A stretch of 64,000 nt of DNA from Corynebacterium sp. (GTDB taxonomy: Bacteria > Actinomycetota > Actinomycetes > Mycobacteriales > Mycobacteriaceae): the NCBI RefSeq assembly GCF_030535495.1, contig NZ_JAUNRW010000002.1, positions 3,654 through 67,653 on the forward strand, in the 5' to 3' direction. This document shows, piece by piece, positions 12,626-60,214 of this stretch (its first letter is position 1; every line of letters begins with the position of its first letter). The notes below the pieces were generated by a model. The model was not told where the DNA came from, searched no databases, and worked only from the letters and a program-made list of their open reading frames with translations. The translations under genes and the position numbers were made by a program.

Positions 12626-13645
12626 GTGCGCTTTTTACCTGGTGTGAACCACACGATCCGTCTCAGTGCTGCCGCTGTGCTCGGTACCGCCCTCATCGTG
12701 GGTGGCGGGACCGCGCCCCGGGCCACCGCCGATGACGTGGAGACCCTCATCGCCTCGATGGAGGAGGTCTCCCACGAGGCCACCGCGAAGAGCGAGGAGG
12801 TCAAGCAGCTCGAGCTCGAGATCGAGGAAGGCCAGGGTCGCATCGACGGCCTCAAGGAGCAGGCGGAGCAGGCCCGCCAGCGGGCACAGGACGCGCAGGC
12901 AGCCCAGCGGGACTTCCAGAATGACGTCAACGGGCTCGCCGGGGCCAAGTACCGCAGCCTCATGGTCGATCCCGTCACCAACGCCATCGCCGCGTCCAAC
13001 CCGCAGAATGCGATCGACCGGGCGGCCTACCTGGGCACCCTGACGCGGAACACCGAACGCGCCGTCGATAAGCTCGCGGCAGCCACGGCGGAAGCCGGGC
13101 GGGCTCACACCACCGCCTCCCGCACCGTGGCCGAGGCCAACTTCACGCAGTCGCAGCTGGAGAAGCAGCACCGCGTCCTCGCGCAGGAGCAGGAGGAGCT
13201 GCAGGAGCGCATCCGTGAGATCGAGGAGCAGGTCTCCGCCCTCGACGAGGCCGCCCGTGCCCTGTGGGAGAACAAGAACAACCCCCTGGTACCGCTGTCC
13301 CTGACCGGCGACGGCGTGGTCGGCGCGGCCCTGAGCAAGCTCGGCTCACCCTACGGATGGGGCGCCACCGGCCCCAACCAGTTCGACTGCTCCGGCCTCA
13401 TGGTGTGGGCCTACCAGCAGCAGGGCAAGTCCATTCCGCGTACCTCCCAGGCGCAGCTGGCGGGTGGCACCCCGGTCTCCCGCGCGGAGCTGCAGCCGGG
13501 CGACATCGTCGGCTACTACCCGGGTGTCACCCATGTGGGCATGTACATCGGCGACGGACAGCTCGTCCACGCCTCCGATTACGGCATCCCCGTGCAGGTG
13601 GTCTCGGTCGACTCCATGCCGTGGGCCGGCGCCGTGCGCTACTAG
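12626..13645 (+). CDS. Secreted coiled-coil NlpC/P60 peptidoglycan endopeptidase (RipC-like); start codon uncertain (12626 or 12644)
   Basis: Signal peptide, long coiled coil, YGWGATGPNQFDCSGL and HVGMY. Confidence 0.88.
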   Translation: MRFLPGVNHTIRLSAAAVLGTALIVGGGTAPRATADDVETLIASMEEVSHEATAKSEEVKQLELEIEEGQGRIDGLKEQAEQARQRAQDAQAAQRDFQNDVNGLAGAKYRSLMVDPVTNAIAASNPQNAIDRAAYLGTLTRNTERAVDKLAAATAEAGRAHTTASRTVAEANFTQSQLEKQHRVLAQEQEELQERIREIEEQVSALDEAARALWENKNNPLVPLSLTGDGVVGAALSKLGSPYGWGATGPNQFDCSGLMVWAYQQQGKSIPRTSQAQLAGGTPVSRAELQPGDIVGYYPGVTHVGMYIGDGQLVHASDYGIPVQVVSVDSMPWAGAVRY

Positions 13646-13657
13646 TACCATTCGGGC

Positions 13658-14746
13658 ATGCCGCGGACACTGCTGGTCACCAATGACTTCCCGCCCACGG
13701 TGGGAGGCATCCAGTCCTACCTCCGGGATTTCCTGGACACCCTCGACCCGTCCGAGGTCGTCGTCTTCGCCTCGACGCAGGACCCGGTAGCCGCCGCCGA
13801 GTATGACCGTTCCGTGCCCTACCGCGTGGTCCGCTGGCCCCGCCACGTCATGCTCCCCACGCCGACCACGGCCGAGGCGATGGGCCAGATCATCCGGGAA
13901 CTCGACATCGACACCGTGTGGTTCGGGGCCGCCGCGCCCCTGGCACTCATGGGACCGGCGGCCCGCCGGGCCGGGGCGGCGCGCATCATCGCCAGCACCC
14001 ACGGGCACGAGGTGGGCTGGTCCATGCTGCCCGGCGCCCGCCGGGTGCTGCGCCGCATCGGCGACAGCGCTGACGTGGTCACCTACATCTCCGACTACAC
14101 CCTGCGGCGCTTCCGCCGGGCCTTCGGCAGCCATCCGCAGTTCCGTCACCTTCCCTCCGGGGTGGACACGGACTGGTTCCGCCCCGCGCCCCGTGTGGAC
14201 GGGCCGCCGACCGTCATCTGTGTGTCGCGGCTGGTGCCGCGTAAGGGTCAGGACATGCTGCTTGCTGTCTGGCCGGACGTCCTGGCCCGATATCCCGACG
14301 CCCGCCTGCGTATCGTGGGGACCGGGCCGTACGAGGCCCGGCTGCGGACCCTGGCGCAACCCCTCGGTGAGGCCGTGGAGTTCACCGGCTCGCTCACCGC
14401 ACCCGAGCTACGCGACGCGCTCGCCGCCGCCGACGTCTTCGCCATGCCGGCCCGTACCCGCGGGAAGGGACTCGATGTCGAGGGGCTCGGCATCGTCTAC
14501 CTGGAGGCGCAGGCCAGCGGCGTGCCCGTCATCGCGGGCACTTCGGGCGGGGCCCCCGAGACGGTCACCCGCGATACCGGCATCGTCGTCGACGGCCGGA
14601 ATGCCACAGAACTGACCGACGCCCTGTGTGCGCTGCTGGGCGACCCGCAGCGGGCGGCCGCGATGGGGCAGGCGGGGCGTCGATACGCACACGCGGAATG
14701 GTCCTGGGAGATCATGGGCGCGCGACTGCGGGATATACTCGCCTAG
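13658..14746 (+). CDS. pimB: GT4 GDP-mannose-dependent phosphatidylinositol mannosyltransferase (PimB')
   Basis: TNDFPPTVGGIQSY, RLVPRKGQD and EGLGIVYLEA (EX7E) motifs; conserved position. Confidence 0.85.
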   Translation: MPRTLLVTNDFPPTVGGIQSYLRDFLDTLDPSEVVVFASTQDPVAAAEYDRSVPYRVVRWPRHVMLPTPTTAEAMGQIIRELDIDTVWFGAAAPLALMGPAARRAGAARIIASTHGHEVGWSMLPGARRVLRRIGDSADVVTYISDYTLRRFRRAFGSHPQFRHLPSGVDTDWFRPAPRVDGPPTVICVSRLVPRKGQDMLLAVWPDVLARYPDARLRIVGTGPYEARLRTLAQPLGEAVEFTGSLTAPELRDALAAADVFAMPARTRGKGLDVEGLGIVYLEAQASGVPVIAGTSGGAPETVTRDTGIVVDGRNATELTDALCALLGDPQRAAAMGQAGRRYAHAEWSWEIMGARLRDILA

Positions 14747-15646
14747 ATGAATACGGTGGGTTTTGATATCGGGGGGACGCAGTGCCGCGCCGCCGTGGTG
14801 ACAGCGGACGGAAAGATCCTCAAGCAGCGCACGGTGCCCACCCCGCGCACGGCCGCCGCGCTCGAGGACGCCGTCGCCGCGCTTGTCGACGAACTACGCC
14901 CGCTCGATCCGGGGGCCGTCGGACTGGCGGTGGCCGGCTTCCTCGACCCGCAACGGGAGATCGTCCGTTTCGCCCCGCACCTGCCGTGGCGTGACACTCC
15001 CGTGCGCGCCCGCCTGCAGGAACGTCTCGGCCTGCCGGTCGTCATGGAACATGACGCCAACTCCGCCGCCTGGGGCGAGTACCGCTTCGGCGCCGCCCGC
15101 GGGGTGGGAACGTGGGTGTTCTTCGCCGTCGGTACCGGCATCGGCGCCGCCCTCATGATCGACGGGGAGATCTTCCGGGGTGCCTACGGGACCGCGCCTG
15201 AGTTCGGGCACCTCACCGTGGTGCGCGGCGGCCGGGAATGCGCCTGCGGAAAGCGCGGATGCCTGGAACGCTACGCCTCCGGCACCGCCCTGGCGGACAC
15301 CGCCGAGGCCCATGGCATGGGCCCGGGACTCAGCGGGCACGCCATCATGACCGCCGCCCGCAGCGGTGATGAGCGCGCCCGCGCGGTGCTGGCGGACTTC
15401 GCCGGCTGGCTGGGACAGGGGCTGAGTATGGTGGCTGACGTGCTCGATCCGGAGGTCATCGTGCTGGGTGGGGGAGTCGCCGCCGACGCCGATCTCTTCC
15501 TCCCGGACGCGGTGGCCGACATGGGCCGGTCCATTGTCGGAGCCGGCCATCGCATCCTGCCGGTCGTGGGAACCGCGGAACTGGGGGCGCACGCGGGTAT
15601 GATCGGCGTGTCCGATCTTGCGCGCACCGAACTCACAGGGGAGTAG
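14747..15646 (+). CDS. glk: ROK-family glucokinase
   Basis: DIGGT, EHDANSAAWGE, GTGIG, EFGH, CACGKRGCLE zinc motif. Confidence 0.92.
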   Translation: MNTVGFDIGGTQCRAAVVTADGKILKQRTVPTPRTAAALEDAVAALVDELRPLDPGAVGLAVAGFLDPQREIVRFAPHLPWRDTPVRARLQERLGLPVVMEHDANSAAWGEYRFGAARGVGTWVFFAVGTGIGAALMIDGEIFRGAYGTAPEFGHLTVVRGGRECACGKRGCLERYASGTALADTAEAHGMGPGLSGHAIMTAARSGDERARAVLADFAGWLGQGLSMVADVLDPEVIVLGGGVAADADLFLPDAVADMGRSIVGAGHRILPVVGTAELGAHAGMIGVSDLARTELTGE

Positions 15647-15650
15647 TCCG

Positions 15651-16391
15651 ATGGAAAAGAAGTGGTACTGGCTGTACAAGAACGTCCTCATCGGCCCGTT
15701 CCTGCGCGTCTGGAACCGCCCCACCATCGAGGGCATCGAGAACATCCCGGACACCGGCGCCGCCATCATCGCCTCCACCCACCAGGCGGTCATGGACTCC
15801 TTCTTCTTCCCCGCGCTCAGCCCCCGGAACATCACGTTCCCGGCCAAGTCCGAGTACTTCACCAACCCGGGTCTCATCGGTCGTGTGCAGAGGTGGTTCT
15901 TCACCTCCATCGGCCAGATCCCGGTCGAGCGGGGAGCCGCCAACGCCGGTGACGCCACCCTCGCCGCCGCCCGCACCGTGCTCGACCGCGGCGATGTCCT
16001 GGGTATCTACCCGGAGGGCACCCGCTCCCCGGACGGGCGCATCTACAAGGGACGTACCGGCATGGCCCGCATCGCGCTGGCCACCGGCGCCCCGATCGTG
16101 CCGCTGGCCATGATCGGTTCCCGCGACGCCAACCCCATCGGCACGTGGATCCCGCGGCCCCGCAAGGTCCGCATGAAGGTCGGCGAGATCATCGACGGCC
16201 GCGCCTACGTCGAGTCCCTCGGAATCGACCCGGATTCCCGGGAGGCCGCCCGCCCCCTCACCGACCACGTCATGGCCGTGCTCACCGAGCTCTCGGGGCA
16301 GCCGTACGTGGACATGTACGCCTCCGAGGTCAAGGAATCTCTGGCCGCCGGCCGTGGTTGGCCGGAGGGTGCCGCGCCGGCTCTTGGCTAA
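15651..16391 (+). CDS. plsC: 1-acyl-sn-glycerol-3-phosphate acyltransferase
   Basis: HX4D (HQAVMD), IYPEGTRS motifs; SD GGGGAG. Confidence 0.9.
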   Translation: MEKKWYWLYKNVLIGPFLRVWNRPTIEGIENIPDTGAAIIASTHQAVMDSFFFPALSPRNITFPAKSEYFTNPGLIGRVQRWFFTSIGQIPVERGAANAGDATLAAARTVLDRGDVLGIYPEGTRSPDGRIYKGRTGMARIALATGAPIVPLAMIGSRDANPIGTWIPRPRKVRMKVGEIIDGRAYVESLGIDPDSREAARPLTDHVMAVLTELSGQPYVDMYASEVKESLAAGRGWPEGAAPALG

Positions 16392-17590
16392 ACGCCAGGT
16401 CAGCTCTATACTTGACGGCTGGACTGCGCCGGATTGCTTCCGGCCGGTAGAAGTTGGCTGCGCGTACGGGATGAGGTGAGGCACGTGTCAGCATCCCCCG
16501 TCACTCCTGTGTCCCCGGCGAAAACCCGCCTGCGCTGGCCCGATGTGGCCAAAGGTCTGTCCATCATCGGAGTGGTCCTGCTCCACGTGAGCCTCGCGGT
16601 GCCGGAGGGCATGGAGACCACGGCGGCCTATCTCAACCGCATCCTCGATCCCCTGCGGATGCCCCTGTTCTTCATGGTCAGTGGCTTCTTCTCGGCGAAG
16701 GTGTTCGGTTTCACATTCAAGGATCTCTTCCTGCGCCGCCTGTGGTTCTTCCTCGTGCCGTATGTCCTGTGGGTGCCCATCGAACTGTGGTTCAAGTTCC
16801 GCGAATGGCACATCTTCGACGGCAAAGAGATGCCGGGGATCTCCCACTACCTGGCCCACATCGTCGAGGGCCGGAACATGTACTGGTTCCTCTACGCCCT
16901 GGTGATCTTCAACGTCGTGCTGTGGCTGACCAGGAAGATGCCGTGGTGGGCGGGAGTGCTGGCCGGTTTCGCCCCGATCCTCATCCTGCCGCTGCACGCC
17001 GATCAGCACATGATCGGCAAGGCCGTCCTGTACCTGCCGGCCTTCCTCCTCGGTGCGCACCTGCGCCACCACATCAGCCACTTCGCGGAGACCGCGACCT
17101 CCCTGCGCCACCTCACGCGCGGCACCATCCTCTACGCCGCCGGTTTCACGGTGGCGGCCGTGTGGGCCTGGTGGAACACGGTCAGTGAGGTCTCCTTGGG
17201 ATGGCCGCTGCCTTTCGCGGAGACCGTCGGATTCGTCGACCTGCGACTGATTGTCAATTCCCTGGTGCAGCTGCTCATGCTGCCCATGGCGGTCATCGTG
17301 GCGGTCCTGCTCTCCCGGATCCCGGTCGTGGTCGACGTGCTGAGTTTCCTCGGCCGCCACACCCTGGTGATCTACCTGGGCCACCCCATCGCCCTGACGG
17401 TGCTCTACCACTACAACCTGCGGGACTGGGAGCTGCCGATCACCCGCGGCGCGGACAGCGTCCTCTACGAGACCGCCCTGTGGATTCTCATCGGCCTGGC
17501 CATCTCCGCCCTCGGCTCGTTTGGCCTGTGGTTGATCACCCGCATTCCCTACCTGCGGTGGTCGATCATGCCGCCGCTGCTGACTGCTGC

Positions 17591-20779
<3,189 letters not shown>

Positions 20780-20790
20780 TCGGTTGCTTA

Positions 20791-20827
20791 TCGACGCCGC
20801 GCTTCCCCCCGGGAGCGCGGCGTTCGA
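20791..20827. terminator. Bidirectional terminator between convergent aroG and pknL
   Basis: TCGACGCCGCGCTTCCC / GGGAGCGCGGCGTTCGA hairpin; the 5' arm overlaps a GCTTATCGACG copy. Confidence 0.65.
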
Positions 20828-20830
20828 CGT

Positions 20831-22948
20831 CTAGAGACTCAGGCGGACAGTGGAGTCGAGGCGGGCGTCGTCACCGGCGTCCGGGCGCTGCCGGGTGACC
20901 TGGGCGTTGCCGTCCCCGGAATAGCGGGCGGTCAGGCCGACGGATTCGAGGGTCTCGGTGGCCTGGGCGGCGGTCATACCGACCACGTTCGGGACGGTGA
21001 CACGGCCGGCGAAGGTGAGGGTGACGTCGGCATCCTCCGGGTCGATGACCTCCCCGGCCGAGGGGCTGGTGCGCACGACGGTGTCGGGACGCACGCCCAC
21101 GGCGCTGCGGTCACGGCGGGTGTCCTCCACCGTGAAACCGGCGGCGTTGAGGGCGGCGGTGGCCTCGGCCTCGGACATGCCCTCGACATCGGGGACGGTG
21201 AGGCCGCTGTTGACCACCAGGGTCACCTCGCTGCCGCGGGTGAGGGTGGTGCCGGGCTCGGGGGAGACGGACAGGACCTGATCGGTGGGCACGTCGGCGT
21301 CGTAACGCTTCTCGACGTGCGCGATACGCAGCTCCAGTTCCCCGAGCCGGGTTTCGGCCTCGGAGAGGGGCACACCGACGATGGCGGGTACCTGGATGGG
21401 TTCCGGGCCCCGCGACAGGTGCACGGTGACGGTGGAGCCGATGCGCACGGCCTCGCCCACGGCCGGATCGGTCTCGGCGACCCGACCCTCCTCGACATCC
21501 GCCGACCAGACCGGATCACCTGTGGTCACCTGCAGGGTGCGTTCGGCGGCGGCCGCCTGGTAGGAGATGACATCCATCCCCTGCGGATCGGGCACGGTGG
21601 GACGGCCCTGGGAGACCAGCACGGTGACCTCGTCGCCGCGCACCAGGCGTTCCCCGTCGGCCGGTTCGGTGCCGGCGATGAGATCGGCGGGCACGTCATC
21701 GTGGTAGACGATCTCGGTCACGGGACGAAACCCGGCCTCCTCCACGGTGGTGACCGCCGCCGTGCGGTCCATGCCGAGTACCTGCGGGATCTCCCCGTAG
21801 CGGCCGGAACCGAACCACCAGGCACCCACGGCGATGGCGGCGGTGAGCAGGGTGATCACCAGCAGCCACACGACCAGGCCCACCTTCGAGCGGTTGCTCA
21901 CCGGAGCCGGCTGTTCCGGCTCCTCCTCCGGCAGCTGCGCAGGCACTTCGGGAGGGGGCTGCGGGGTCAGGGACTCCTGGACGCGGGTCTCGTGCGGGTT
22001 GTCGGGGACGACCTCGGTCACCATGGTCGGCGGCCCCACGAGGTCGGTGATGTCCGTCGGCACCGCTGCCGCACGGGTGGCGGCCGAGTTCTCCGGCACC
22101 GGGACGGTGAAGGCGGGCAGCGCCAGCTCTCCGGCCACATCGTCGAGCGCCGCCAGGAACTCGGCGGCGTCCGCGAAGCGGTCACGAGGGTCGCGGGAGG
22201 TGGCGGTGGCCACGAGGGCGTCGATAAGCGGCGGAACGCCCGAGATGCGGGCACTCGGCGCGGGGACGTCGTCTTCGAGGCGTCGATAAGCATGGTCCAG
22301 CGGGGTGTCGCCCGAAAATGGCGTGGTGCCGGTGAGCAGCTCGAACAGGACGATGCCGGCGGAGTAGACGTCGGAGGCGGGCGTGATGTCGGTGCCGTCG
22401 ACCTGCTCGGGGGAGAGGTAGGCGGCGGTGCCGACGATCTGGGAACTGGTGGATGCGGCAGCCGCCGCCCGCACCAGCCCGAAATCGGCGAGTTTCACGC
22501 GGTGGTCGCCGTTGATGAGGACATTGTCCGGCTTGATGTCCCGGTGGACCAGGCCGCCGGAATGCGCCACGGACAGCCCCGTGAGCACCGCGCGCAGGAC
22601 CGTGACCGCGGCGTGCGGCGGCATGGGGCCGCGTTCTGCCAGCAACTCGCGCAGCGTGCCACCGGTGATCAGTTCCATGATGAGGAAGAGGTGGTCACCA
22701 TCCGAACCGAAGTCGTAGACATTGACCAGGTTCGGGTGGTTGAGCTGGGCCATCGCGCGGGCCTCGCGGCGGAAGCGCTGCCGGAACACCGGGTCCGCGA
22801 TGTACTTCTCGTCGAGGACCTTGGCGGCGACCGCACGCCCCAGACGCAGGTCCACACAGCGCCAGACCATGGACATGCCACCGCGCGCGATCGGGTGATC
22901 GATGCGGTAACGGTCCTCGAGGAGGTCTCCCACTGCCAGTTGAGCCAT
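20831..22948 (-). CDS. pknL: Ser/Thr protein kinase with TM helix and PASTA repeats
   Basis: IARGGMS, VAAK, HRDIKPDN, DFG, YLSPE; TM then several PASTA repeats; ATG 22948 (MAQLAVGD). Confidence 0.92.
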   Translation of the reverse strand: MAQLAVGDLLEDRYRIDHPIARGGMSMVWRCVDLRLGRAVAAKVLDEKYIADPVFRQRFRREARAMAQLNHPNLVNVYDFGSDGDHLFLIMELITGGTLRELLAERGPMPPHAAVTVLRAVLTGLSVAHSGGLVHRDIKPDNVLINGDHRVKLADFGLVRAAAAASTSSQIVGTAAYLSPEQVDGTDITPASDVYSAGIVLFELLTGTTPFSGDTPLDHAYRRLEDDVPAPSARISGVPPLIDALVATATSRDPRDRFADAAEFLAALDDVAGELALPAFTVPVPENSAATRAAAVPTDITDLVGPPTMVTEVVPDNPHETRVQESLTPQPPPEVPAQLPEEEPEQPAPVSNRSKVGLVVWLLVITLLTAAIAVGAWWFGSGRYGEIPQVLGMDRTAAVTTVEEAGFRPVTEIVYHDDVPADLIAGTEPADGERLVRGDEVTVLVSQGRPTVPDPQGMDVISYQAAAAERTLQVTTGDPVWSADVEEGRVAETDPAVGEAVRIGSTVTVHLSRGPEPIQVPAIVGVPLSEAETRLGELELRIAHVEKRYDADVPTDQVLSVSPEPGTTLTRGSEVTLVVNSGLTVPDVEGMSEAEATAALNAAGFTVEDTRRDRSAVGVRPDTVVRTSPSAGEVIDPEDADVTLTFAGRVTVPNVVGMTAAQATETLESVGLTARYSGDGNAQVTRQRPDAGDDARLDSTVRLSL

Positions 22949-26675: not shown

Positions 26676-26757
26676 AGGGGTGTGGTGTTCGGGTCCGGTT
26701 CTAAGGTGACGGCATCACCGAAACACGGAGAAGAAATAAGGAAAGGAGTTGGTTCCG

Positions 26758-27183
26758 GTGGCTCAGATCATTTCAGCAACGACGAGGTTTGCCGGGGCAG
26801 GTAGCCGCCGGGCCGACTTCATTCTCAAGGCTCGGGCCCTCCTGGTGCAGGCGGTGCAGCACCGGGAGGCGGGCGAGTGGGACCTGGCGTTGGAGATGGC
26901 CTTCCAGGCGGCGCTGCGGACGGCGGGTGCGCGCATCTCGGCCTCGGCGGTGGCCCGGCGTCGGCGTCTGCCGACGAGCGCGTGGGAGCAGTTGCAGCTG
27001 GTGGATGCGGACGGGCAGCGATGGGCGAGCGAATTCTCGCAGTACTCCCGCCTGCGCTCCCGCGTGGTGGCCGGTCTGGAGCTGTCCGTCGATCACGCGG
27101 TGGTGAATCGGATCATGGATCTGGCCGCCGAATTTTTGGCCGAGGTGGAGGGCGAGGCGGGCTGGCTCCCGGCGGCGGCGTAG
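26758..27183 (+). CDS. SAV_6107-family HEPN domain protein
   Basis: AFQAALRTAGA..RRRLPTSAWEQL..W family pattern; conserved position upstream of DUF3040-mraZ; GTG 26758 after SD AAAGGAG. Confidence 0.8.
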   Translation: MAQIISATTRFAGAGSRRADFILKARALLVQAVQHREAGEWDLALEMAFQAALRTAGARISASAVARRRRLPTSAWEQLQLVDADGQRWASEFSQYSRLRSRVVAGLELSVDHAVVNRIMDLAAEFLAEVEGEAGWLPAAA

Positions 27184-43659: not shown

Positions 43660-44385
43660 ATGTCCCTACGCAGCGCCAACGAGGCCCCCCGCCCCGTCCG
43701 CATGGTGTTCACCACCCGTGCGGGCGGGGTGTCGTCGTCTCCCTATGACTCCTTCAATCTCGGTGATCATGTCGGGGATGATCCCGCCGCTGTCGCCGCC
43801 AACCGTGAGCGTCTGGCCCGCGTCCTCGAGCTCGAGCACGTGGTGTGGATGGAACAGATCCACTCCCACAACGTCACCGTCGTCGAGGGCCCGCAGGATG
43901 ATCCGGTCGAGGCCACCGACGCCCTCGTGACCACGCAGCGCAGGCTGGCGCTGGCCGTCCTGGTCGCCGACTGCGTGCCGGTACTGCTGGCGGATCATGT
44001 CCACGGCGTCGTGGCGGCCGCCCACGCCGGGCGCATGGGGGCGCGCAACGGAATCGTGCGGCGCACCGTCGAGACGATGCTCGAACTCGGTGCCAGGCCG
44101 GAGAGCATTCAGGTGGTGCTGGGTCCGGCGGCCTCCGGGCGGCACTATGAGGTGCCCGCGGAGATGGCGGCGGACGTCGATAAGCATCTTCCCGGATCGA
44201 CGACCCGCACGGAGAAGGGCACCCCGGGTATCGACGTCCGCGCCGGCCTGGTCCGCCAGCTCATGAGCCTGGGTGTGACCACCATCGAGGCCGATCCGCG
44301 GTGCACCATCGAGGACGAGGACTTCTTCTCCTACCGCCGCGAGGGCACCACCGGTCGCCAGGCGGGGTTGGTGTGGCTGCCGTGA
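43660..44385 (+). CDS. pgeF: Peptidoglycan editing factor / purine nucleoside phosphorylase PgeF (YfiH)
   Basis: FNLGDHVGD, QIHS, ADCVP, HAG, FFSYRR. Confidence 0.92.
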   Translation: MSLRSANEAPRPVRMVFTTRAGGVSSSPYDSFNLGDHVGDDPAAVAANRERLARVLELEHVVWMEQIHSHNVTVVEGPQDDPVEATDALVTTQRRLALAVLVADCVPVLLADHVHGVVAAAHAGRMGARNGIVRRTVETMLELGARPESIQVVLGPAASGRHYEVPAEMAADVDKHLPGSTTRTEKGTPGIDVRAGLVRQLMSLGVTTIEADPRCTIEDEDFFSYRREGTTGRQAGLVWLP

Positions 44386-45044
44386 GTCGCCTCGAGGAAC
44401 TGCGGACCAATCTCGCCGCCACCCGGGCGCGTATCGACGCCGCCGCGGGCACCCGCCCCGTCCGCCTGCTGCCCGTGACCAAGTTCCACCCCGCCTCCGA
44501 CCTGGAGCTGCTGCTGGAGCTCGGCGTCACCGATGTCGCGGAGAACCGCGAGCAGGAGGCGCGGGCCAAGGCGGAGGCGGTGCCGGGGATGCGCGTCCAC
44601 ATGATCGGCCAGATCCAGACGAAGAAGGCGAACTCCGTGGCACGGTGGGCCGCGAGTGTCCACTCCCTGGATTCCGTGCGCCTGGCGCAGGCCCTTGACC
44701 GCGGGGTCGCGCTGGCCCTGGAACGCGGCGACCGCACCACCTCCCTGCCCGTCTATCTGCAGCTGTCCGCCGACGGCGACACCGCCCGCGGGGGAGTGAC
44801 GGAGGAGGAGCTTCCCGAGCTCATCGACGTCGTGCAGGCCGCCGAGCACCTCGAACTGCGAGGCCTCATGGTGGTGCCGCCGCTGGGCGTGGATCCGGCC
44901 GGGGTGTTCGCCCGCGCGCGTGAACTCAGCGCCGGAATGGAGCTGTCGGCCGGCATGTCCGCCGACCTGGAAATCGCCATCGCGCAGGGCACCGACATCG
45001 TGCGTGTCGGTACCGATGTGATGGGTCAGCGCCCACTAGCGTAA
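44382..45044 (+). CDS. yggS: PLP homeostasis protein YggS
   Basis: VTKF, AENREQE, HMIGQIQ, LSAGMSAD, VRVGT; GTGA overlap with pgeF. Confidence 0.92.
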   Translation: MSRLEELRTNLAATRARIDAAAGTRPVRLLPVTKFHPASDLELLLELGVTDVAENREQEARAKAEAVPGMRVHMIGQIQTKKANSVARWAASVHSLDSVRLAQALDRGVALALERGDRTTSLPVYLQLSADGDTARGGVTEEELPELIDVVQAAEHLELRGLMVVPPLGVDPAGVFARARELSAGMELSAGMSADLEIAIAQGTDIVRVGTDVMGQRPLA

Positions 45045-47093: not shown

Positions 47094-47109
47094 CGACAGT
47101 GTTCTCCAC

Positions 47110-47150: not shown

Positions 47151-47214
47151 CTGCTTCTCCGGGTAGGGCGCGGTAAGTTTTGTACAACCAACTACCCGCC
47201 TGGAAGGCTCACAA

Positions 47215-49995: not shown

Positions 49996-50609
49996 TCGGC
50001 GGCCACCCACAGTTCCAGCGCCCGACTGCCGTGGACGACGCTGCCGTAGTCGTTGGTGCCGGTCACCCTGGTGATGACGGTGAGCACCCACCCGGCGGTG
50101 TCGTCCGCAGCGCGCGGCAGCTGCAGGGCGTCGATGAACGAGGACGGTTCCGTGACGGAGTAGCCGCTGAGATCCTGGCTGCCGTCGGAAAGCACGCTCA
50201 TATCGCCTGTCGGCTCGAGAGCGTTGTTGACGGGCTGGGCGTAGACCGTCAGGGTGGTCAGCGTGACTCGGTCAGTCGAGCGCGGCACCAGCGACACCCG
50301 GATCATGGCGATGGGGGAGTCGAGGTTCGGGACGTCCGTCCAGGTGCTCACCCGCAGCTCATGTCCTGAGACGTCGGTGATGACCTCGGTGGGCGGTGGG
50401 GGCAGAACCGGCTCCGGAAACGTCGGCAAGCTGAAGGTGGGGCGCTCCCGGGGGATGGCCGCTACCTGGGTGTCGACGCCGTCCACCGGGGTGGACAGGG
50501 CCGGGACGGGGAAGGCACTGCGCATCAGCGACGAGATCTCCGGGGTGGAGCACGCCGACAACGGCATGCACACCGCGAGCGCGAGGCAGGCGAATCGTAG
50601 GCGGTTCAT
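49992..50609 (-). CDS. Lipoprotein of unknown function
   Basis: ATG 50609 after SD GGAGA; basic N-terminus, hydrophobic stretch, lipobox LSAC; Pro-rich linker then a beta-rich domain; 205 aa. Confidence 0.75.
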   Translation of the reverse strand: MNRLRFACLALAVCMPLSACSTPEISSLMRSAFPVPALSTPVDGVDTQVAAIPRERPTFSLPTFPEPVLPPPPTEVITDVSGHELRVSTWTDVPNLDSPIAMIRVSLVPRSTDRVTLTTLTVYAQPVNNALEPTGDMSVLSDGSQDLSGYSVTEPSSFIDALQLPRAADDTAGWVLTVITRVTGTNDYGSVVHGSRALELWVAAD

Positions 50610-50641
50610 GGGTCTCCCATCAGGGCAACGGTTGGTTCTTA

Positions 50642-50753
50642 GGGGTAGTACAGCCACTGGTCATGCGCGGCGCAAGGGAAACCCGGGGAAACCGGTAGCG
50701 GTCCCGGTAGTGGGGAAGACTCCCGTAGTTTTCCCCGTACTAGTTTCCTCCCC
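50642..50753. repeat. Cluster of short SSGTAG and GGGGAA/TTCCCC repeats in the lipoprotein-GT2 divergent promoter
   Basis: GGGGTAG 50642, CCGGTAG 50692 and 50704, CCCGTAG 50722, CCCGTAC 50734; TAGTTTTCCCC and TAGTTTCCTCCCC. Confidence 0.55.
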
Positions 50754-50783
50754 GAAATGTGTTCTGCGGCATATCTTTCTGGC

Positions 50784-52244
50784 ATGACCACTCCCGACAC
50801 CACCGCTCCCTCGACCGACGTGAGCACCATCGACCCGGACAATCACTTCCTCACCTATGCCCCCCAACGCGCAGCCGAGGTGGAGGTGTACCGTGCGCCC
50901 TCGATCGTGGCCTGCATCATTCCCGCCTACAACGAGGAATCCACCATCGCGGCGGTCCTGGAATCCGTCCTGGCGCAGTCGCGGCTTCCCGACGTCGTCC
51001 ACGTCGTGGTGAACAACACCACGGACGACACCTACTGGATCGCCCGTGAGTACTGCGGACGTCACGACATCGACTACCGCGGCGTACAGCAGTCGACCGA
51101 GATCTTCATCCACGACGTCGGCCGCATGGCCGACCGCAAGGTCGGTGCCCTGAACTACGGATTCGATCTGCTCGGGGAGGACGTCGACTACGTCATCGGC
51201 GTCGACGGTGACACCACCCCGCATCCCAAGGCCTTCGAACGTCTGCTGGCGGAGGCGGAGTCGGACTCACGCATCGGTGGTGTCAGCGCCATCTACAGTA
51301 TCGACACCCACGGGCACCGAGGGCCGATCGCCAACTTCCTCGTCGTCGGTCAGCGTGCGCAGTTCGCCTCCTTCACACTGCTCAACCTGTGCCGCGGCCG
51401 CAACATGGCGGTGCTCGGAGGGCAGTGTTCCATCTTCTCCGCGCGCGCCCTGCGCCATGTCAAGCAGTCCTACAACCAGAAGACACCCTGGGTCAACGAT
51501 TCGGAGGTGGAGGATTCGCTGCTCAGCCTGCAGATCCGGTCGGCCGGCTATCTGACGAAGATCTCCAGCACCGCGCGCGCCGACGTCGGCGGAATGACCA
51601 CTCTTCGGGCCCTGGACGCCCAGCAGGTCAAGTGGAACTACGGGGCGATCGACCTCATGTGGCCCGGGGAGCGTGGAAACCTCCGCGGCCAACCGTTCCA
51701 TCCCAACCTGCGGCTGCGCTGGTACGAAAACATCGAGATGCTCCTCAACTTCGTCGTCCGTGTCGGCTTCGTCCTGCTGCTCTTGGCCTCGCTGTCCATC
51801 GGTGCCTTCAGCTTCCAGTGGTGGTGGCTCATTCCGCCGGTGCTGGCGACCCTGCTCAACCTGCGCGTGGCACTGACCATGGAGAATCGGACCACCAAGG
51901 ACATCCTCTTCGCCCTGTTGTTCTTCCCGGCGGAAATCTACATGTGGATCAAGATAGGCCACTTCCTCCGTGCCTGGACGCGATTCCTCTCCCGGGTGAA
52001 CACGGACAACTGGGGTGATCAGGCGAAGGCGGAACAGGGCAAGGGTGGCTGGAAGTATCTCGGGCCCCTGCTGGCACTGGTCATCGTGGTCATCATCGCC
52101 GTCGGTATGTGGCTGAGCATGCCCACCAACGCCCAGGTCATCGCGCTGTGGATCGGCTGGCCGATCCAGGCGGCGGTGACGCTCATCCTGTGTCTCATCA
52201 TGGTCCGCCGCCTGACGCGGCGACAGTACGGCTACCGTGTATAA
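50784..52244 (+). CDS. GT2 processive-type membrane glycan synthase (D,D,D,QxxRW-like)
   Basis: IIPAYNEE, KVGALN, DGD, EVED, QQVKW, then about 4-5 C-terminal TM helices; ATG 50784 with -10 TATCTT 6 nt upstream. Confidence 0.85.
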   Translation: MTTPDTTAPSTDVSTIDPDNHFLTYAPQRAAEVEVYRAPSIVACIIPAYNEESTIAAVLESVLAQSRLPDVVHVVVNNTTDDTYWIAREYCGRHDIDYRGVQQSTEIFIHDVGRMADRKVGALNYGFDLLGEDVDYVIGVDGDTTPHPKAFERLLAEAESDSRIGGVSAIYSIDTHGHRGPIANFLVVGQRAQFASFTLLNLCRGRNMAVLGGQCSIFSARALRHVKQSYNQKTPWVNDSEVEDSLLSLQIRSAGYLTKISSTARADVGGMTTLRALDAQQVKWNYGAIDLMWPGERGNLRGQPFHPNLRLRWYENIEMLLNFVVRVGFVLLLLASLSIGAFSFQWWWLIPPVLATLLNLRVALTMENRTTKDILFALLFFPAEIYMWIKIGHFLRAWTRFLSRVNTDNWGDQAKAEQGKGGWKYLGPLLALVIVVIIAVGMWLSMPTNAQVIALWIGWPIQAAVTLILCLIMVRRLTRRQYGYRV

Positions 52245-52245
52245 T
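52237..52245 (+). promoter_or_regulatory. ileS promoter -10 element overlapping the GT2 stop codon
   Basis: GTG-TATAAT (hexamer 52240-52245) about 40 nt upstream of the T-box. Confidence 0.65.
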
Positions 52246-52282
52246 CGCCGATGTCTGTCCCGTCTTTCCGGCGGGCAACACG

Positions 52283-52417
52283 CCATGATCCGGCCATCAC
52301 CGGGGAGCGTCTCCGGAAGAACAGCCCGTGGGGCCCAGTAGAACCGGATCACCATGAACGAAGTGGGGTGCCGTGGCACCCAAGCAGGGTGGTACCGCGC
52401 AGCACATGCGTCCCTGC
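52283..52417 (+). ncRNA. Ile T-box riboswitch (actinobacterial translational type)
   Basis: Short stem I GATCCGGCC-ATC-ACCGGGGAGC with Ile specifier ATC at 52296, AGTA/GAA S-turn elements, T-box AAGCAGGGTGGTACCGCG, GCAGGG / CCCTGC pairing. Confidence 0.92.
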
Positions 52418-52449
52418 ACCGCCTGTCCCGTTCGTGAGTGAAGGAAGAT

Positions 52450-55400
52450 ATGTCCGAGCAGAAGAAGACCGCCGTCGGCGGCGTCTACCCGAAGGTCGAC
52501 ATGACCGGGGGCTCCTCCCGTTTCCCTGACATGGAGGAGATCGTCCTCGACTACTGGAAGAAGGACGGTACCTTCCAGGCTTCCCTGGACCAGCGCGAGG
52601 GAGCCAAGGAGTACGTCTTCTACGACGGCCCGCCCTTCGCCAACGGCCTGCCGCACTACGGCCACCTGCTCACCGGCTACGTCAAGGACATCATCCCGCG
52701 TTTCCGCACCATGACCGGGCACCATGTGCCCCGCGTCTTCGGCTGGGACACCCATGGCCTGCCGGCGGAGCTGGAGGCGGAGAAGCAGCTCGGCATCACC
52801 GACAAGGGCCAGATCGAGGACATGGGTCTGGCGAAGTTCAACGAGTACTGCGCCGAGAGCGTGCTCCGCTACACCGAGGAGTGGAAGGAGTACGTCACCC
52901 GTCAGGCACGCTGGGTCGACTTCGACAACGGCTACAAGACGATGGACCCGGGGTACATGGAGTCCGTCATCTGGGCCTTCAAGCAGCTCTACGACAAGGG
53001 CCTGATCTACCAGGGCTTCCGCGTCCTGCCGTACTCCTGGGCCGAGCACACGCCCCTGTCGAACCAGGAGACGCGTCTCGACGACTCCTACAAGATGCGC
53101 CAGGATCCCACGCTGACCGTCACCTTCCCGGTGACCGGCGCCGTCGCCGGTTCCGCCGCGGAAAAGTCGCTCGCCGCCCAGCCCCTGCTTGCCGACGCCG
53201 CCGCGCTGGCCTGGACCACCACCCCCTGGACCCTGCCGTCGAACCTGGCGCTCGCCGTCCACCCGGAGGTCGATTACGCGCTGGTGAAGTCCGAGCACGG
53301 CGTGTACCTCATGGCCGCCCCGCTGGTGGGCACCCTGGCCAAGGAGTTCGGGGAGCACGAGGTCGTCGATACGCTCGCCGGCGCTCAGCTCGAGGGCCTG
53401 CAGTACCAGCCCATCTTCGACTACTTCGCCGACGAGCCCAACGCCTTCCAGATCATCCTCGCCGACTACGTCACCGTCGAGGACGGCACCGGTGTCGTCC
53501 ACCAGGCCCCGGCCTTCGGTGAGGACGACATGGAGTCCTGTAAGCAGTACGGCATCGGTGTGGTCATCCCCGTCGACATGGACGGCAAGTTCACCTCCCA
53601 GGTCCCGGAGTACGAGGGCCAGCTGGTCTTCGACGCCAACAAGGACATCATCCGCGACCTCAAGGAGCGCGGCCGGGTGGTGCGCCACCAGACCATCGAG
53701 CACTCCTACCCGCACTCCTGGCGTTCCGGCGAGCCGCTCATCTACATGGCGCTGCCGTCCTGGTTCGTCCGCGTCACCGAGATCCGCGACCGCATGGTCG
53801 AACTCAACCACGAGGAGATCACCTGGCTGCCGGAGCACGTCCGCGACGGACAGTTCGGCAAGTGGCTGGAGAACGCCCGCGACTGGAACATCTCCCGCTC
53901 CCGTTACTGGGGTTCGCCGATCCCGGTGTGGGTCTCCGACAACGACGAGTACCCGCGTATCGACGTCTACGGCTCCCTCGACGAGCTCGAGGCCGACTTC
54001 GGCGTGCGCCCGACGTCCCTGCACCGCCCCTACATCGACGAGCTGACCCGCCCGAACCCGGATGATCCGAGCGGCCGGTCCACCATGCGCCGTGTCCCGG
54101 ATGTGCTGGACGTGTGGTTCGACTCCGGGTCCATGCCCTTCGCGCAGTTCCACTACCCCTTCGAGAACAAGGAGTTCTTCGAGGAGCACAACCCGGCCGA
54201 CTTCATCGTGGAGTACATCGGCCAGACCCGCGGCTGGTTCTACCTGCTGCATGTGCTCTCGGTGGGCCTGTTCGACCGCCCGGCGTTCAAGAAGGTCGTC
54301 GCCCACGGCATCGTGCTGGGTGATGACGGCCAGAAGATGTCCAAGTCCAAGGGCAACTACCCCAACGTCAACGAGGTCTTCGACCGCGACGGCTCCGACG
54401 CCATGCGCTGGTTCCTCATGTCCTCGCCGATCCTGCGCGGCGGCAACCTCATCGTCACCGAGCAGGGCATCCGCGACGGCGTGCGCCAGGCGCTGCTGCC
54501 GATCTGGAACGCCTACTCCTTCCTGCAGCTGTACTCCTCGCAGCCGGCGCAGTGGTCCGTGGATTCCGAGGACGTCCTCGACCGCTACATCCTGGCCAAG
54601 CTGCATGACCTGGTCGGCACCGTCCGCGTTTCCCTGGACAACACCGACATCGCCGACGCCACCGATGCCGTGCGCCAGTTCGCCGATGCGCTGACCAACT
54701 GGTACGTGCGTCGTTCCCGCGGCCGATTCTGGCTCGGCGACGAGGAGCACCCGGAGGCCTTCAACACCCTCTACACGGTGCTCGAGGTGCTCACCCGCGT
54801 CACCGCCCCGCTGCTGCCGATGACCTCCGAGGTCATCTGGCGCGGCCTGACCGGTGAGCGCTCCGTCCACCTGGCCAACTTCCCGGAGGCCGCGGACATC
54901 CCCGCGGATGCCGACCTGGTCACCGCGATGGACGCCACCCGCGGTGTCTGCTCCGCAGCCTCCTCGGTGCGCAAGGCGCACAAGCTGCGCAACCGCCTGC
55001 CGCTGCCGTCCCTGACCGTGGCGCTGCCGGACTCCGGCCAGCTCGAGCCCTTCGCCGCCATCATCCGCGACGAGGTCAACGTCAAGAACATCGAGCTGAC
55101 CTCGGATGTCGACGCCGTGGGTACCTTCGAGGTCGTCGTCAACGCCCGTGCCGCCGGCCCGCGCCTGGGCAAGGACGTCCAGCGCGTGATCAAGGCCGTC
55201 AAGGCGGGCAACTACGAGCGCGTCGGTGACACGGTCGTCGCCGACGGCATCGAGCTCAACGCCGACGAGTACACCGAGCGCCTCGTCGCCGCGAACCCGG
55301 AGTCGACCGCGCGTATCGACGGCCTCGACGGCCTCGTCGTCCTCGACATGGAGGTCACCGAGGAGCTGGAGGCCGAGGGCTGGGCCGCGGATGTCATCCG

Positions 55401-55617
55401 CGGTCTGCAGGATGCCCGCAAGGCCAGCGGCCTGGAGGTCTCCGACCGCATCAGCGTCGTCCTTTCCGTTCCGGAGGACAAGCTGGAGTGGGCGCAGCGC
55501 CACCGCGATCTCATCGCCGGTGAAGTCCTGGCCCTCGAGCTGGACGTGACCACCGAGGATCTGGGCGAGGCGCATGACGTGGTCTCCGGAGTGAAGGCGA
55601 CCGTCGTCAAGCGATGA
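52450..55617 (+). CDS. ileS: Isoleucine--tRNA ligase (type 2)
   Basis: [48 protein letters not shown]; ATG 52450 after SD AAGGAAG. Confidence 0.97.
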
Positions 55618-56423: not shown

Positions 56424-56432
56424 CCTGTACCT

Positions 56433-57803
56433 ATGCAACGCTGGGTTCTCCACATCGACATGGACGCGTTCTACGCCTCCGTCGAGCAGCTGACCCGGCC
56501 GACCCTCCGCGGCCGCCCCGTGCTGGTGGCGGGGGTGTCCGGCAGGGGAGTGGTGGCCGGTGCCAGCTACGAGGCCCGCAGATTCGGCGCCCGTTCCGCC
56601 ATGCCCACGCACCAGGCCGCGCGCCTGGTCGGATTCTCCGCGGTGCTGGTCGCGCCGCGGAAGGCGGTGTACGCGGTGGCGTCGAGACGCGTCTTCGAGC
56701 TCATCTCCTCCCACGTCGGGCTGGTGGAGCAACTGTCCATCGACGAGGCCTTCATGGAACCCGAGGCCCTGGTCGGCGCCACCCCCGCCGAGGTCAGACA
56801 GTGGGCGGATGAGCTCCGCGCACTCATTCGGGAGGAGACGGGATTGCCGTCCTCCATCGGTGCCGGCACCGGCAAGCAGTACGCCAAGATCGGCTCCGGA
56901 CGGGCGAAACCCGACGGTACCTTCGTCATTCCCGGCGACACGCAACTGGAGATCCTCCATCCCATGCCCGTCTCCGAGCTGTGGGGCGTCGGCCCGGTCA
57001 CCCGCACCAAACTCTCCCAGATCGGAGTGGAGACGATCGGGGATCTGGCCGCCCTGACCCCGAAGGAGGTCGAGATCTCCCTCGGCGGCACCGTCGGCCC
57101 TGGTCTGTGGGCTTTGGCCAACGGTATCGACGAGCGCCCCGTCGAACCGCGCGCCGAGGCCAAGTCCATCTCCGCCGAGTACACCTACCCGCGCGATCTG
57201 ACGACGCGCCCGGAGGTCGACGCCGCCATCACCCGCGCCGCCGAGGCCGCCCACCGGCGCCTGCTTATCGACGGCCGCGGCTCCCGCACCGTCACCGTCA
57301 AACTCAAGATGTCCGACTTCCGGATCGAGTCCCGCTCCGCCACCCTTCCCTATGCCACCGACAACTACGACACTTTGCTGGCCACCGCTTTCCGGCTGGT
57401 GCGCTACCCCGGCGAGGTGGGGGCGATCCGGTTGGTGGGTGTCGGTTTCACCGGACTGGAGACCGCGCAGCAGGATGTGCTCTTCCCGGAACTCGACCAG
57501 CAGGTGGTGGTGGCCAGCCCGGATGATGATTTCGAGACCGGGGTCAGCGATCACATCGTCGAACCTGTCGTGGAGGTGGAGGAGGAGGACACCGGCTGGC
57601 GGGCCACCCAGGATGTGTTCCACCCGGACCACGGGCACGGCTGGGTACAGGGCACCGGACACGGGATCGTGTCGGTACGTTTCGAGACGCGCGCTACCGG
57701 GCCGGGCAGGACCCGCACCTTCGCTGTGGACGATCCCGACCTCCGTCCGGCCGACCCCGTGGCCAGTCTGGCCTGGGACGAGTGGCTGGAAAAGCAGGAC
57801 TAG
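56433..57803 (+). CDS. dinB: DNA polymerase IV (actinobacterial DinB1/DinX with C-terminal extension)
   Basis: HIDMDAFYASVE, ASYEAR, SIDEAF, AKIGS..KPDG; C-terminal DVFHPDHGHGWVQG..VRFET. Confidence 0.95.
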   Translation: MQRWVLHIDMDAFYASVEQLTRPTLRGRPVLVAGVSGRGVVAGASYEARRFGARSAMPTHQAARLVGFSAVLVAPRKAVYAVASRRVFELISSHVGLVEQLSIDEAFMEPEALVGATPAEVRQWADELRALIREETGLPSSIGAGTGKQYAKIGSGRAKPDGTFVIPGDTQLEILHPMPVSELWGVGPVTRTKLSQIGVETIGDLAALTPKEVEISLGGTVGPGLWALANGIDERPVEPRAEAKSISAEYTYPRDLTTRPEVDAAITRAAEAAHRRLLIDGRGSRTVTVKLKMSDFRIESRSATLPYATDNYDTLLATAFRLVRYPGEVGAIRLVGVGFTGLETAQQDVLFPELDQQVVVASPDDDFETGVSDHIVEPVVEVEEEDTGWRATQDVFHPDHGHGWVQGTGHGIVSVRFETRATGPGRTRTFAVDDPDLRPADPVASLAWDEWLEKQD

Positions 57804-59200: not shown

Positions 59201-59296
59201 GGGGATCACCCCCCTTCGATCGTGTGTCGTTCATGCGTTCGAATGTCACGATAGACGGCACCCCGGACATGGGGGTGATCCTCGGGGGTAGGGCGC

Positions 59297-60214
59297 TTAA
59301 AGGAGCAGGTCAGACACGTGTCTACCGGACGCCAGGGCGACCACCATGGCCATGCGAGCCTGTCCGGCGCGGAGGTGTCCCGCACTGAGTGCGCCCGCCG
59401 AACCGAGCGTCGCACCACCCCCTGAGCCGCCGTAGGACAGGGAGACTTCACCTGCGGGGACCCGGGAGGTGATCACCACCGGGATGCCCGACTCCAGGGC
59501 GGCGGCCACGCCCGCGCCCATCTCCGGGCCGATGTTGCCGGACCCCAGGGCCTCGATGACGATGCCCTGGGCGCCGGCGGTGACGGCGGCGTCGATAAGC
59601 ACGCGATCGGAGCCGGGCCAAGCGGCCAGGACCGGAACCTGAACGCCGTCCAACGGTGTGACCGGCAGTCCTGCGGGTCGGCGGGCCTCGCGGGGCACGG
59701 TGGAGATGAAGGCGTCGAGATCCGTGGTGTGTCGCTTGACCGCGCCGCGCGCCGGGATGGTCCACCCGCCGAAGGCGATGAGCACGCCCTGGCGGCGGGC
59801 GAGGGGATCGGCGGCCAGACGGAGGGCGTCGATGAGGTTGCCGGGGCCGTCGGACTCGCGGTGGTCGAAGGCACGCTGGGCTCCGGTGAGGACCACGGGG
59901 CGCTCATCGGTGTGGAAACAGTCCAGCGCGAAAGCGGTGTCCTCCATGGAATCCGTGCCGTGGGTGACCACGACGGCGTCGATATCCGGGTCCTCCAGCG
60001 CCCCGTGCACGGCCGCGATGAGGCCGTCGAGGTCCTTCAGCGTGATCGCGGAGGAGTCGAGGCGGGTCAACTCGGTGACGGTGACGTCGGCGGTGACGTG
60101 CTCGGCGACGGCGTCGAGCAGCTCCTGTCCGGTCACGGTGGGGCGCAGGGCTCCAGCGGAGTCGGTGGTGCAGGCGATGGTGCCGCCCGTGGTGAGCAAC
60201 GCAATGCGGGTCAT
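59297..60214 (-). CDS. ansA: L-asparaginase
   Basis: TTGGTIA, THGTDSMED, TGAQR, DGPGNL; ATG 60214. Confidence 0.92.
   Translation of the reverse strand: MTRIALLTTGGTIACTTDSAGALRPTVTGQELLDAVAEHVTADVTVTELTRLDSSAITLKDLDGLIAAVHGALEDPDIDAVVVTHGTDSMEDTAFALDCFHTDERPVVLTGAQRAFDHRESDGPGNLIDALRLAADPLARRQGVLIAFGGWTIPARGAVKRHTTDLDAFISTVPREARRPAGLPVTPLDGVQVPVLAAWPGSDRVLIDAAVTAGAQGIVIEALGSGNIGPEMGAGVAAALESGIPVVITSRVPAGEVSLSYGGSGGGATLGSAGALSAGHLRAGQARMAMVVALASGRHVSDLLL

Follow-up and report, generated by a model that had tools for sequence, protein, structure and literature searches.

Hyper-abundant DNA words are rare, and the DNA uptake sequences (DUS) of the Neisseriaceae, the uptake signal sequences (USS) of the Pasteurellaceae and the highly iterated palindrome HIP1 (GCGATCGC) of cyanobacteria each report how lineages recognise their own DNA in gene exchange. 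USS and DUS reshape the codons and occasionally the amino acids of the genes in which they lie (PMC2817400), and their lineage-specific variants keep a conserved core (PMC1626085, PMC7371117). HIP1 is over-represented 15- to 300-fold and is conserved at orthologous positions above background (Xu et al.); it has been reported to increase natural transformation in a way that depends on methylation and to co-vary with the DNA-uptake apparatus. Here we analyse a hyper-abundant word in a stretch of 64 kb from Corynebacterium sp. (contig NZ_JAUNRW010000002.1), the whole of which is called the window below. An earlier note on the window had picked out the word as a dispersed, orientation-independent 11-mer and had considered it a candidate uptake, HIP-like or protein-binding motif.

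A force acts on the word at the level of the DNA. It is specific for the word, blind to its orientation and specific to the lineage, it saturates about two thirds of the sites that the encoded proteins permit, and it alters proteins: the word forces the genes in which it lies to use rare codons and now and then to accept a conservative amino-acid change.

The word and its copy number

The consensus word is (T)GC[T/G]TATCGACG(CC). It is free-standing and non-palindromic, the reverse complement of GCTTATCGACG being CGTCGATAAGC and its palindromic part the inner TCGA only. In the window GCTTATCGACG is present 13 times (5 copies on the plus and 8 on the minus strand) and GCGTATCGACG 9 times (7 plus, 2 minus), all at the coordinates and on the strands that the earlier note had given. 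The note had taken GCGTATCGACG for one specific variant; its nine copies stand, but it is more than a mere variant, namely a second accepted form that is dominant in some relatives. The expected numbers are 0.01 for GCTTATCGACG and 0.03 for GCGTATCGACG from dinucleotide-preserving shuffles, and 0.02 copies from an order-3 Markov model. The density is 1 copy per 2.9 to 4.9 kb, which, extrapolated to roughly 3 Mb, would amount to about 600 to 1000 copies per genome.

The window contains 14 GCTTAT hexamers, and since 13 of them continue into CGACG and thus lie inside the motif, the word behaves as a single unit. Eight of the 13 GCTTATCGACG copies extend to GCTTATCGACGCC, as had been claimed, and nine have a T at position −1. 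This T is present in all three contexts other than L-I-D, where it is kept at the cost of the rare codons GCT and CAT, from which the full consensus T-GCTTATCGACG-CC follows. Beyond the T at −1 and the CC at +1/+2 the flanks of the copies are unrelated, which, together with the intragenic position of 21 of the 22 copies, rules out a longer repeat, a miniature inverted-repeat transposable element or a repetitive extragenic palindrome.

TTATCGACG agrees with the DnaA box TTATCCACA at 7 of 9 positions (the dialect of L002, described below, fits worse), and GCTT resembles the site of mycobacterial topoisomerase I. Both likenesses were set aside as unsupported; neither would account for the hyper-abundance.

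Coding frames and the protein-aware expectation

Genes were called by third-position GC content; the 47 genes make up about 89% of the window. GCTTATCGACG is read in sense as L-I-D (CTT ATC GAC) six times, in antisense as V-D-K (GTC GAT AAG, in the same codon phase) four times and in sense as A-Y-R (GCT TAT CGA) twice, and it is intergenic once; GCGTATCGACG is read as R-I-D seven times and as V-D-T and R-R-Y once each. The earlier note's statement that the motif is read in several frames and also lies between genes is correct for L-I-D, V-D-K, A-Y-R and the one intergenic copy; a gene ending in a CGT-CGA-TAA copy, which it had also listed, does not occur. Its observation that the motif uses rare codons is borne out by the counts. 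CTT makes up 2.9% of the leucine codons and is nevertheless present in 6 of 11 L-I-D, GTC-GAT-AAG accounts for 4 of 6 V-D-K, CGT (15% of the arginine codons) is present in 6 of 9 R-I-D, and GCT-TAT-CGA encodes both motif-bearing A-Y-R sites.

Synonymous shuffling within genes yielded 1.45 copies on average and never more than 4, as compared with the 13 observed. This expectation is inflated because the rare codons of the motif itself are recycled in the shuffle. An analytic null model was used, in which every protein sequence was fixed, the codons were drawn from window-wide usage and only coding DNA was counted. Against this null, 12 copies of GCTTATCGACG were observed with 0.39 expected (12 of 16 permitted sites filled) and 8 copies of GCGTATCGACG with 0.46 expected (8 of 16 permitted sites filled), so that the two forms together occupy 20 of 32 protein-permitted sites; the enrichment is about 30-fold. 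Occupancy is 14 of 21 for sense and 6 of 11 for antisense sites. GCGCATCGACG, the preferred-codon synonym of the G variant, was observed 0 times with 1.5 expected at 16 permitted sites. That the null is calibrated follows from 30 high-GC control loci from outside Corynebacterium (535 kb coding DNA), in which the 64 variants of GCNTNNCGACG were found 47 times with 52.6 expected and none of the variants was significant.

The specificity of the word is sharp, no substitution being accepted at 10 of the 11 positions. Of the single-substitution variants only the one with G for T at position 3 is enriched and, weakly, the one with C for A at position 5 (GCTTCTCGACG, 7 copies versus 1.42 expected). 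In addition, GCTTNNCGACG shows an about 5-fold general enrichment in the window. The first 13 kb of the window are free of the motif; they harbor the core genes cobT, asnB, ctaC/F and qcrCAB and only one protein-permitted site. Because of this single site the empty region requires no special explanation, and the site and the core gene content rule out that the region is foreign DNA.

These results bear directly on the explanation that there is no DNA-level signal and that common peptides (LID, RID, VDK), together with a local codon or codon-pair preference, give rise to the count as a by-product. This explanation could draw on the single codon phase of 10 of the 13 exact and 8 of the 9 variant copies and on the hydrophobic residue by which sense L-I-D is often preceded. 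However, the null that gives 0.39 and 0.46 where 12 and 8 copies are found is accurate in the controls, the word is also found in another frame with three rare codons, in antisense and between genes, it recurs in a species with 57% GC and different codon usage, and related high-GC corynebacteria that do not have the word carry another one. We regard the by-product explanation as having almost no chance of being correct; the synonymous shuffle, the protein-conditioned null, the controls and the recurrence in C. tuscaniense (see below) refute it. The earlier note had supposed that selection acts on the DNA rather than on the protein and had named a codon-aware null as the check; the count is not explained by such a null, which supports the supposition.

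Strand and density

Most genes of the window point in one direction, and the two forms together are split 12 (plus) to 10 (minus) between the strands. Since both strands carry copies in this ratio there is no polarity of the kind known from the crossover hotspot instigator Chi or the FtsK-orienting polar sequences (KOPS). The view of the earlier note that the word is orientation independent, and neither Chi nor KOPS, thus agrees with the strand split and with the occupancy of both sense and antisense sites.

The strand split also bears on whether the word could be a Chi-like signal that controls recombination or nuclease action by AdnAB or RecBCD, or a word recognised by an actinomycete double-stranded DNA translocase of the FtsK/TraB type (similar to clt or the TraB recognition sequences, TRS, of conjugal transfer), marking self DNA in repair or transfer. 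The density of Chi in E. coli is close to 1 per 5 kb, which is also about that of the Corynebacterium word, and TraB recognition sequences are plasmid-specific short words and hence dialect-like; HIP1, too, may act partly in a Chi-like manner. Yet the ratio of 12:10 was found in 64 kb that probably lie within one replichore, where Chi, KOPS and the SpoIIIE recognition sequences (SRS) are polarised, and Chi, KOPS and TRS are 5 to 8 bp long and enriched a few-fold, as compared with 11 to 14 bp and about 30-fold for the word. We therefore consider such a role quite improbable.

Relatives carrying the word

Syntenic loci were fetched from relatives and scanned; a metagenome scan with MurG yielded few close relatives. 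The window comes from an uncultured Corynebacterium, the assignment to the genus being based on homologues of MurG and PknL. Among named species C. pollutisoli is nearest, with 86% identity in PknL, and C. nasicanis comes next. Related sequence is present in metagenome runs from manure, cattle and wastewater.

The pknL region of C. nasicanis (L350) contains 7 copies of GCKTATCGACG in 22 kb (0.02 expected), the C. pollutisoli-type locus (L349) contains 5 copies and the division and cell wall (dcw) regions of the relatives L082, L083 and L084 contain 7 to 9 copies each. C. tuscaniense, which has 57% GC and belongs to a different clade, has 4 exact copies in 21 kb (0.01 expected). The exact word was found 0 times in 77 loci (about 1.5 Mb) of other Actinomycetota, these being among the FtsZ matches listed and mostly distant. 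The density is thus not confined to the window, and the Corynebacterium-lineage origin that the earlier note had put forward is in keeping with this distribution.

Scans of IMG/VR with 14-mers of both dialects gave single, chance-level matches only, which tells nothing about phages that infect just these hosts; of 234 viral loci (2.0 Mb) none had at least two copies. Carriage by phages or prophages has therefore no support from these scans, with the same restriction as to the hosts.

Dialects

In Corynebacterium sp. NPDC060344 (L002), which is basal in the genus tree, the word is replaced by (T)GCTTTCCGACG, with 6 copies in 21 kb (0.04 expected), mostly read as L-S-D and one of them on the opposite strand. 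Five of the six copies (3510-19808) are 3.9 to 4.25 kb apart, about 4.07 kb; over all six the even spacing is not significant (P = 0.09). Two copies of the TC word are present in C. frankenforstense (L114). The sister lineage formed by L085 and L092 uses GCTTCTCGACG (9 copies versus 1.09 expected, 9 of 12 permitted sites filled), and L082 and L084 prefer GCGTATCGACG and GCGTGTCGACG. All dialect words keep G1, C2, T4, C7, G8, A9, C10 and G11 and differ in one to two inner positions. How one dialect corresponds to another is seen at an orthologous site in dinB, where the window and C. tuscaniense have GCTTATCGACG (HRRLLIDGRG) and NPDC060344 has GCTTTCCGACG (HGRLLSDGRG), with a change between Ile and Ser.

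The window itself contains 2 copies of GCTTTCCGACG (0.01 expected from the protein-aware null). They could be relics, imports from a lineage with the TC dialect or the result of relaxed specificity. Even in corynebacteria without a clear peak word the GCNTNNCGACG frame exceeds the protein-aware null 4- to 7-fold (6 versus 0.9 in L003, 11 versus 1.6 in the C. striatum-type locus L111), and in the 30 controls from outside the genus it is at expectation. These counts hint that the system, or its relics, may be genus-wide.

Retention and gain of sites

In alignments of the dcw and pknL regions the sites 13063, 17589, 32849, 33434, 36699 and 44429 are conserved clade-wide. Retention was compared with the background for arbitrary 11-mers. 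Among relatives with the same dialect, C. nasicanis retained 7 of 8 sites (background 0.24), L083 6 of 10 (0.19) and L082 6 of 10 (0.29); L085, which has a different dialect, retained 1 of 10 (0.16). Sites are thus retained above background in same-dialect relatives only. Conservation of synonymous positions, a check named in the earlier note, was likewise found in close relatives.

Sites are also gained. At 44175 the window has CGTCGATAAGC (V-D-K), L082, L083 and L084 have CGTCGAGAAGC (V-E-K) and the remaining relatives have other non-motif forms; the alignment marks the site as a gain in the lineage of the window, from a near-match via a change of E to D. Near-matches also gave rise to lineage-specific copies at 39821 in the window, at 37155 in L083 and at 48330 in L084.

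The murF site 33952, together with about 20 bp of context, is present in the window and in the more distant L083 and absent from the closer L082 and L084. This distribution points to a parallel gain or to a short inter-lineage recombination tract.

Conversion of near-matches to exact words is what would be expected if the word were the by-product of a repair- or methylation-linked drive without a role in DNA exchange: a Vsr-like endonuclease, or an orphan methyltransferase with a repair partner, would correct near-cognates. The dialects would then follow changes in enzyme specificity; the word does change quickly between close lineages, as the specificities of restriction-modification systems do. 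Part of the word is TCGA, a frequent target of methylation, and intergenic DNA shows no enrichment. Unlike known methyltransferase and Vsr sites, which are 4 to 6 bp long or bipartite, the word is a contiguous, non-palindromic 11- to 14-mer that is fixed at 10 positions. A methylation- or repair-linked origin is a long-standing hypothesis for HIP1 (PMC4390886) and as such a precedent. However, repair of the Vsr type leads in E. coli to modest over-representation only, and the above-background conservation in same-dialect relatives does not favour a drive of this kind; in the case of HIP1, Xu et al. read conservation as a sign that selection, rather than biased repair replenishing the sites, is at work. 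On balance we consider the repair-linked drive unlikely, both as the source of the word and, through changing enzyme specificity, as the source of the dialects.

The conservation, which includes one intergenic site and sites with rare codons, would also fit an array of binding sites for a chromosome-organising protein (a nucleoid-associated protein, a condensin loader or similar) kept for genome architecture, and so would the sharp 11-bp specificity, which recognition by a protein would give. The copies in the window are, however, not regularly spaced (P = 0.37). The known arrays are also of another kind, parS, matS, Noc and SlmA sites numbering tens per genome and being mostly palindromic, and the near-saturation, the many lineage-specific gains and the rapid change of dialect are hard to fit. 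Although Xu et al. argued for a role of HIP1 in the nucleoid and in genome architecture, we regard an architectural array as rather improbable here.

A possible self-DNA recognition tag

Biased uptake and recombination of tagged self DNA, as known from DUS in the Neisseriaceae and USS in the Pasteurellaceae, is the only established mechanism that gives this combination of a word-specific force at the DNA level, dialects and co-evolution with the proteome. For this reason we rank first, tentatively and with less than even confidence, the interpretation that the word marks self DNA for recognition, as a tag of the DUS/USS/HIP1 class. On this view, an uptake or exchange pathway would have a component, specific to the lineage, that binds DNA and prefers DNA bearing the word. 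Near-matches would then become exact ones genome-wide, because tagged DNA of the same species would be imported and recombined preferentially. The process would be a molecular drive, possibly with some help from selection, and shifts in the specificity of the receptor would give rise to dialects. By the same analogy some Corynebacterium lineages might possess a sequence-specific DNA uptake or exchange system with an 11- to 14-bp tag and fast-evolving dialects, a possibility that we put forward with reserve. Of the DUS- or HIP-like signal that the earlier note had proposed, the signal is upheld by the lineage dialects, the lack of polarity, the saturation and the DNA-level force; the function we infer from the known systems.

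Several points weigh against the recognition tag. We found no report in the literature of natural transformation in Corynebacterium. Each genome was sampled over only about 20 to 60 kb, and all the sampled DNA belongs to a single neighbourhood of the chromosome (qcr to pknL to dcw to ileS). The word is 3 to 5 times less dense than DUS, USS and HIP1, which occur about once per kb, and non-coding DNA has 1 copy in about 7 kb versus 1 per 2.7 kb in coding DNA; inverted motif pairs forming terminators were not found in the window. Peak words differ even between lineages with about 80 to 84% DNA identity, a turnover faster than that of known DUS dialects. Finally, sequence data cannot separate a drive by uptake from a drive by repair.

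Full-text searches by sequence and by topic did not retrieve a prior description of the word, nor of any signal resembling an uptake sequence, for Corynebacterium or Actinomycetota. If the word is a recognition tag, it would be the first uptake-sequence system in the Actinomycetota or among mycolata of any kind. A genus that comprises animal commensals, pathogens and industrial organisms would then have natural transformation, or another route of exchange that depends on the tag, which has gone unrecognised. It would thus point to a DNA-recognition system that has not yet been looked for there. Type strains bearing the word exist for C. pollutisoli, C. nasicanis and C. tuscaniense. Possible uses are a better transformation of recalcitrant corynebacteria, a lineage marker for the binning of metagenomes and, through the absence of the word, a flag for recently acquired DNA.

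Sites and neighbouring features

The individual sites are compiled in Table 1.

Table 1. Copies of the word and of GCTTTCCGACG in the window (window coordinates)
Word	Position	Strand	Context and encoded residues	Occurrence in relatives
GCTTTCCGACG	9937-9947	+	in qcrB, G-A-F-R-R-P	
GCTTATCGACG	13063-13073	-	antisense, NlpC/P60 gene, A-V-D-K-L (GTC GAT AAG)	kept in C. pollutisoli-type and C. nasicanis
GCGTATCGACG	14678-14688	-	antisense, glycosyltransferase (GT4) gene, R-R-Y-A	common to C. nasicanis
GCTTATCGACG	17589-17599	+	sense, acyltransferase gene, A-Y-R-R, rare codons GCT TAT CGA	kept in all three species, flanks diverged
GCTTATCGACG	18658-18668	-	sense, GT87 gene, L-L-I-D-A	common to C. 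nasicanis; one mismatch in C. pollutisoli-type
GCTTATCGACG	20786-20796	+	only intergenic copy, between convergent 3-deoxy-D-arabino-heptulosonate 7-phosphate (DAHP) synthase and PknL-like kinase genes	common to C. nasicanis
GCTTATCGACG	22219-22229	-	sense, PASTA Ser/Thr kinase gene, P-L-I-D-A	in C. nasicanis; GAC for GAT in C. pollutisoli-type
GCTTATCGACG	22281-22291	-	sense, same PASTA kinase gene, H-A-Y-R-R, rare CAT GCT TAT CGA	common to C. pollutisoli-type
GCGTATCGACG	30803-30813	+	sense, ftsI/penicillin-binding protein gene, M-R-I-D-G	common to L082, L084, L349, L350
GCGTATCGACG	32849-32859	+	sense, murE, T-R-I-D-G	kept in L082, L083, L084; CGC ATT in L085
GCGTATCGACG	33434-33444	+	sense, murE, E-R-I-D-E	kept in L082 to L086
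GCTTATCGACG	33952-33962	-	antisense, murF, D-V-D-K-P	common to L083 only
GCTTATCGACG	36699-36709	+	sense, murD, L-L-I-D-A	kept in L082, L083, L084, L086; GCTTCTCGACG in L085
GCTTATCGACG	39821-39831	-	antisense, murG, G-V-D-K-L	window lineage only; CGTCGAGAAGC (V-E-K) in L084
GCGTATCGACG	41123-41133	+	sense, murC, L-R-I-D-D	common to L082, L083
GCTTATCGACG	44175-44185	-	antisense, Cu-oxidase_4 (YfiH-like) gene, D-V-D-K-H	
GCGTATCGACG	44429-44439	+	sense, YggS-like gene, A-R-I-D-A	kept in L082, L083, L084, L003
GCTTATCGACG	47526-47536	+	sense, LuxR/AAA regulator gene, L-L-I-D-D; inside 5 kb insertion	
GCTTTCCGACG	50183-50193	-	in unknown gene inside 5 kb insertion	
GCGTATCGACG	53364-53374	-	antisense, ileS, V-V-D-T-L	
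GCGTATCGACG	53955-53965	+	sense, ileS, P-R-I-D-V	
GCGTATCGACG	55311-55321	+	sense, ileS, A-R-I-D-G	context ACCGCGCGTATCGACGGCCTCG also in L082, L083, L084
GCTTATCGACG	57263-57273	+	sense, dinB, H-R-R-L-L-I-D-G-R-G	
GCTTATCGACG	59590-59600	-	sense, asparaginase gene, V-L-I-D-A	

The 3′ half of the intergenic copy forms the left arm of a strong, GC-rich hairpin at 20791-20826 (−34.4 kcal/mol, z −4.96), where the DAHP synthase and PknL-like kinase genes converge. The right arm is not a motif copy and a T tract is absent; the hairpin probably serves as a bidirectional terminator like those of actinobacteria. Directly 3′ of it lies GCGT-TCGACG, which is the G variant of the motif minus one base.

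A segment of about 5 kb (47167-52300) is inserted in the window between divIVA/wag31 and ileS; all five close relatives lack it. It codes for a LuxR-family regulator of 926 amino acids with an AAA ATPase domain, a GT2 glycosyltransferase and, on the opposite strand, an unknown protein of 221 amino acids, and it carries one exact copy of the motif (47526).

Upstream of the dcw cluster, a gene at 26749-27183 (+) that codes for a small SAV_6107-like HEPN-domain protein adjoins a DUF3040 gene and mraZ. The same arrangement is found in the C. pollutisoli-type and C. nasicanis loci.

Comparison with known systems

DUS (10 to 12 bp, with dialects) and USS (9-bp core, Hin and Apl types) are, like the Corynebacterium word, short, non-palindromic, very strongly over-represented and present on both strands. 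As with DUS and USS, most copies of the word are intragenic and lie in frames for common peptides, and the change from V-E-K to V-D-K at 44175 resembles the reshaping of the proteome by USS and DUS. The distribution of the word and its sister words among lineages also parallels the dialects of uptake sequences. The word differs in its host, a genus of mycolic-acid-containing Actinomycetota for which neither natural competence nor uptake specificity has been reported. In Neisseria and Haemophilus the uptake words are enriched between genes, often as inverted pairs that form terminators, neither of which holds for the Corynebacterium word.

With HIP1 the word shares hyper-abundance, a location inside open reading frames as well as between them, lineage variants and orthologous sites conserved above background. 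HIP1 is, however, palindromic, 8 bp long and spaced quasi-periodically, and two orphan methyltransferases have their sites within it, whereas the Corynebacterium word is an asymmetric 11- to 14-mer without detectable periodicity at the scale of the window.

Chi and KOPS are, like the word, short and dispersed, and serve DNA-processing motors; the density of the word resembles that of Chi in E. coli. They are 5 to 8 bp long, modestly over-represented and polarised with respect to replication; the Corynebacterium word is longer, far more enriched and distributed 12:10 between the strands. The Corynebacterium word lies in a phylum that is new for hyper-abundant genomic signature words, and its distinguishing features are the asymmetric 11- to 14-mer, the saturation of coding sites and the quickly shifting dialects.

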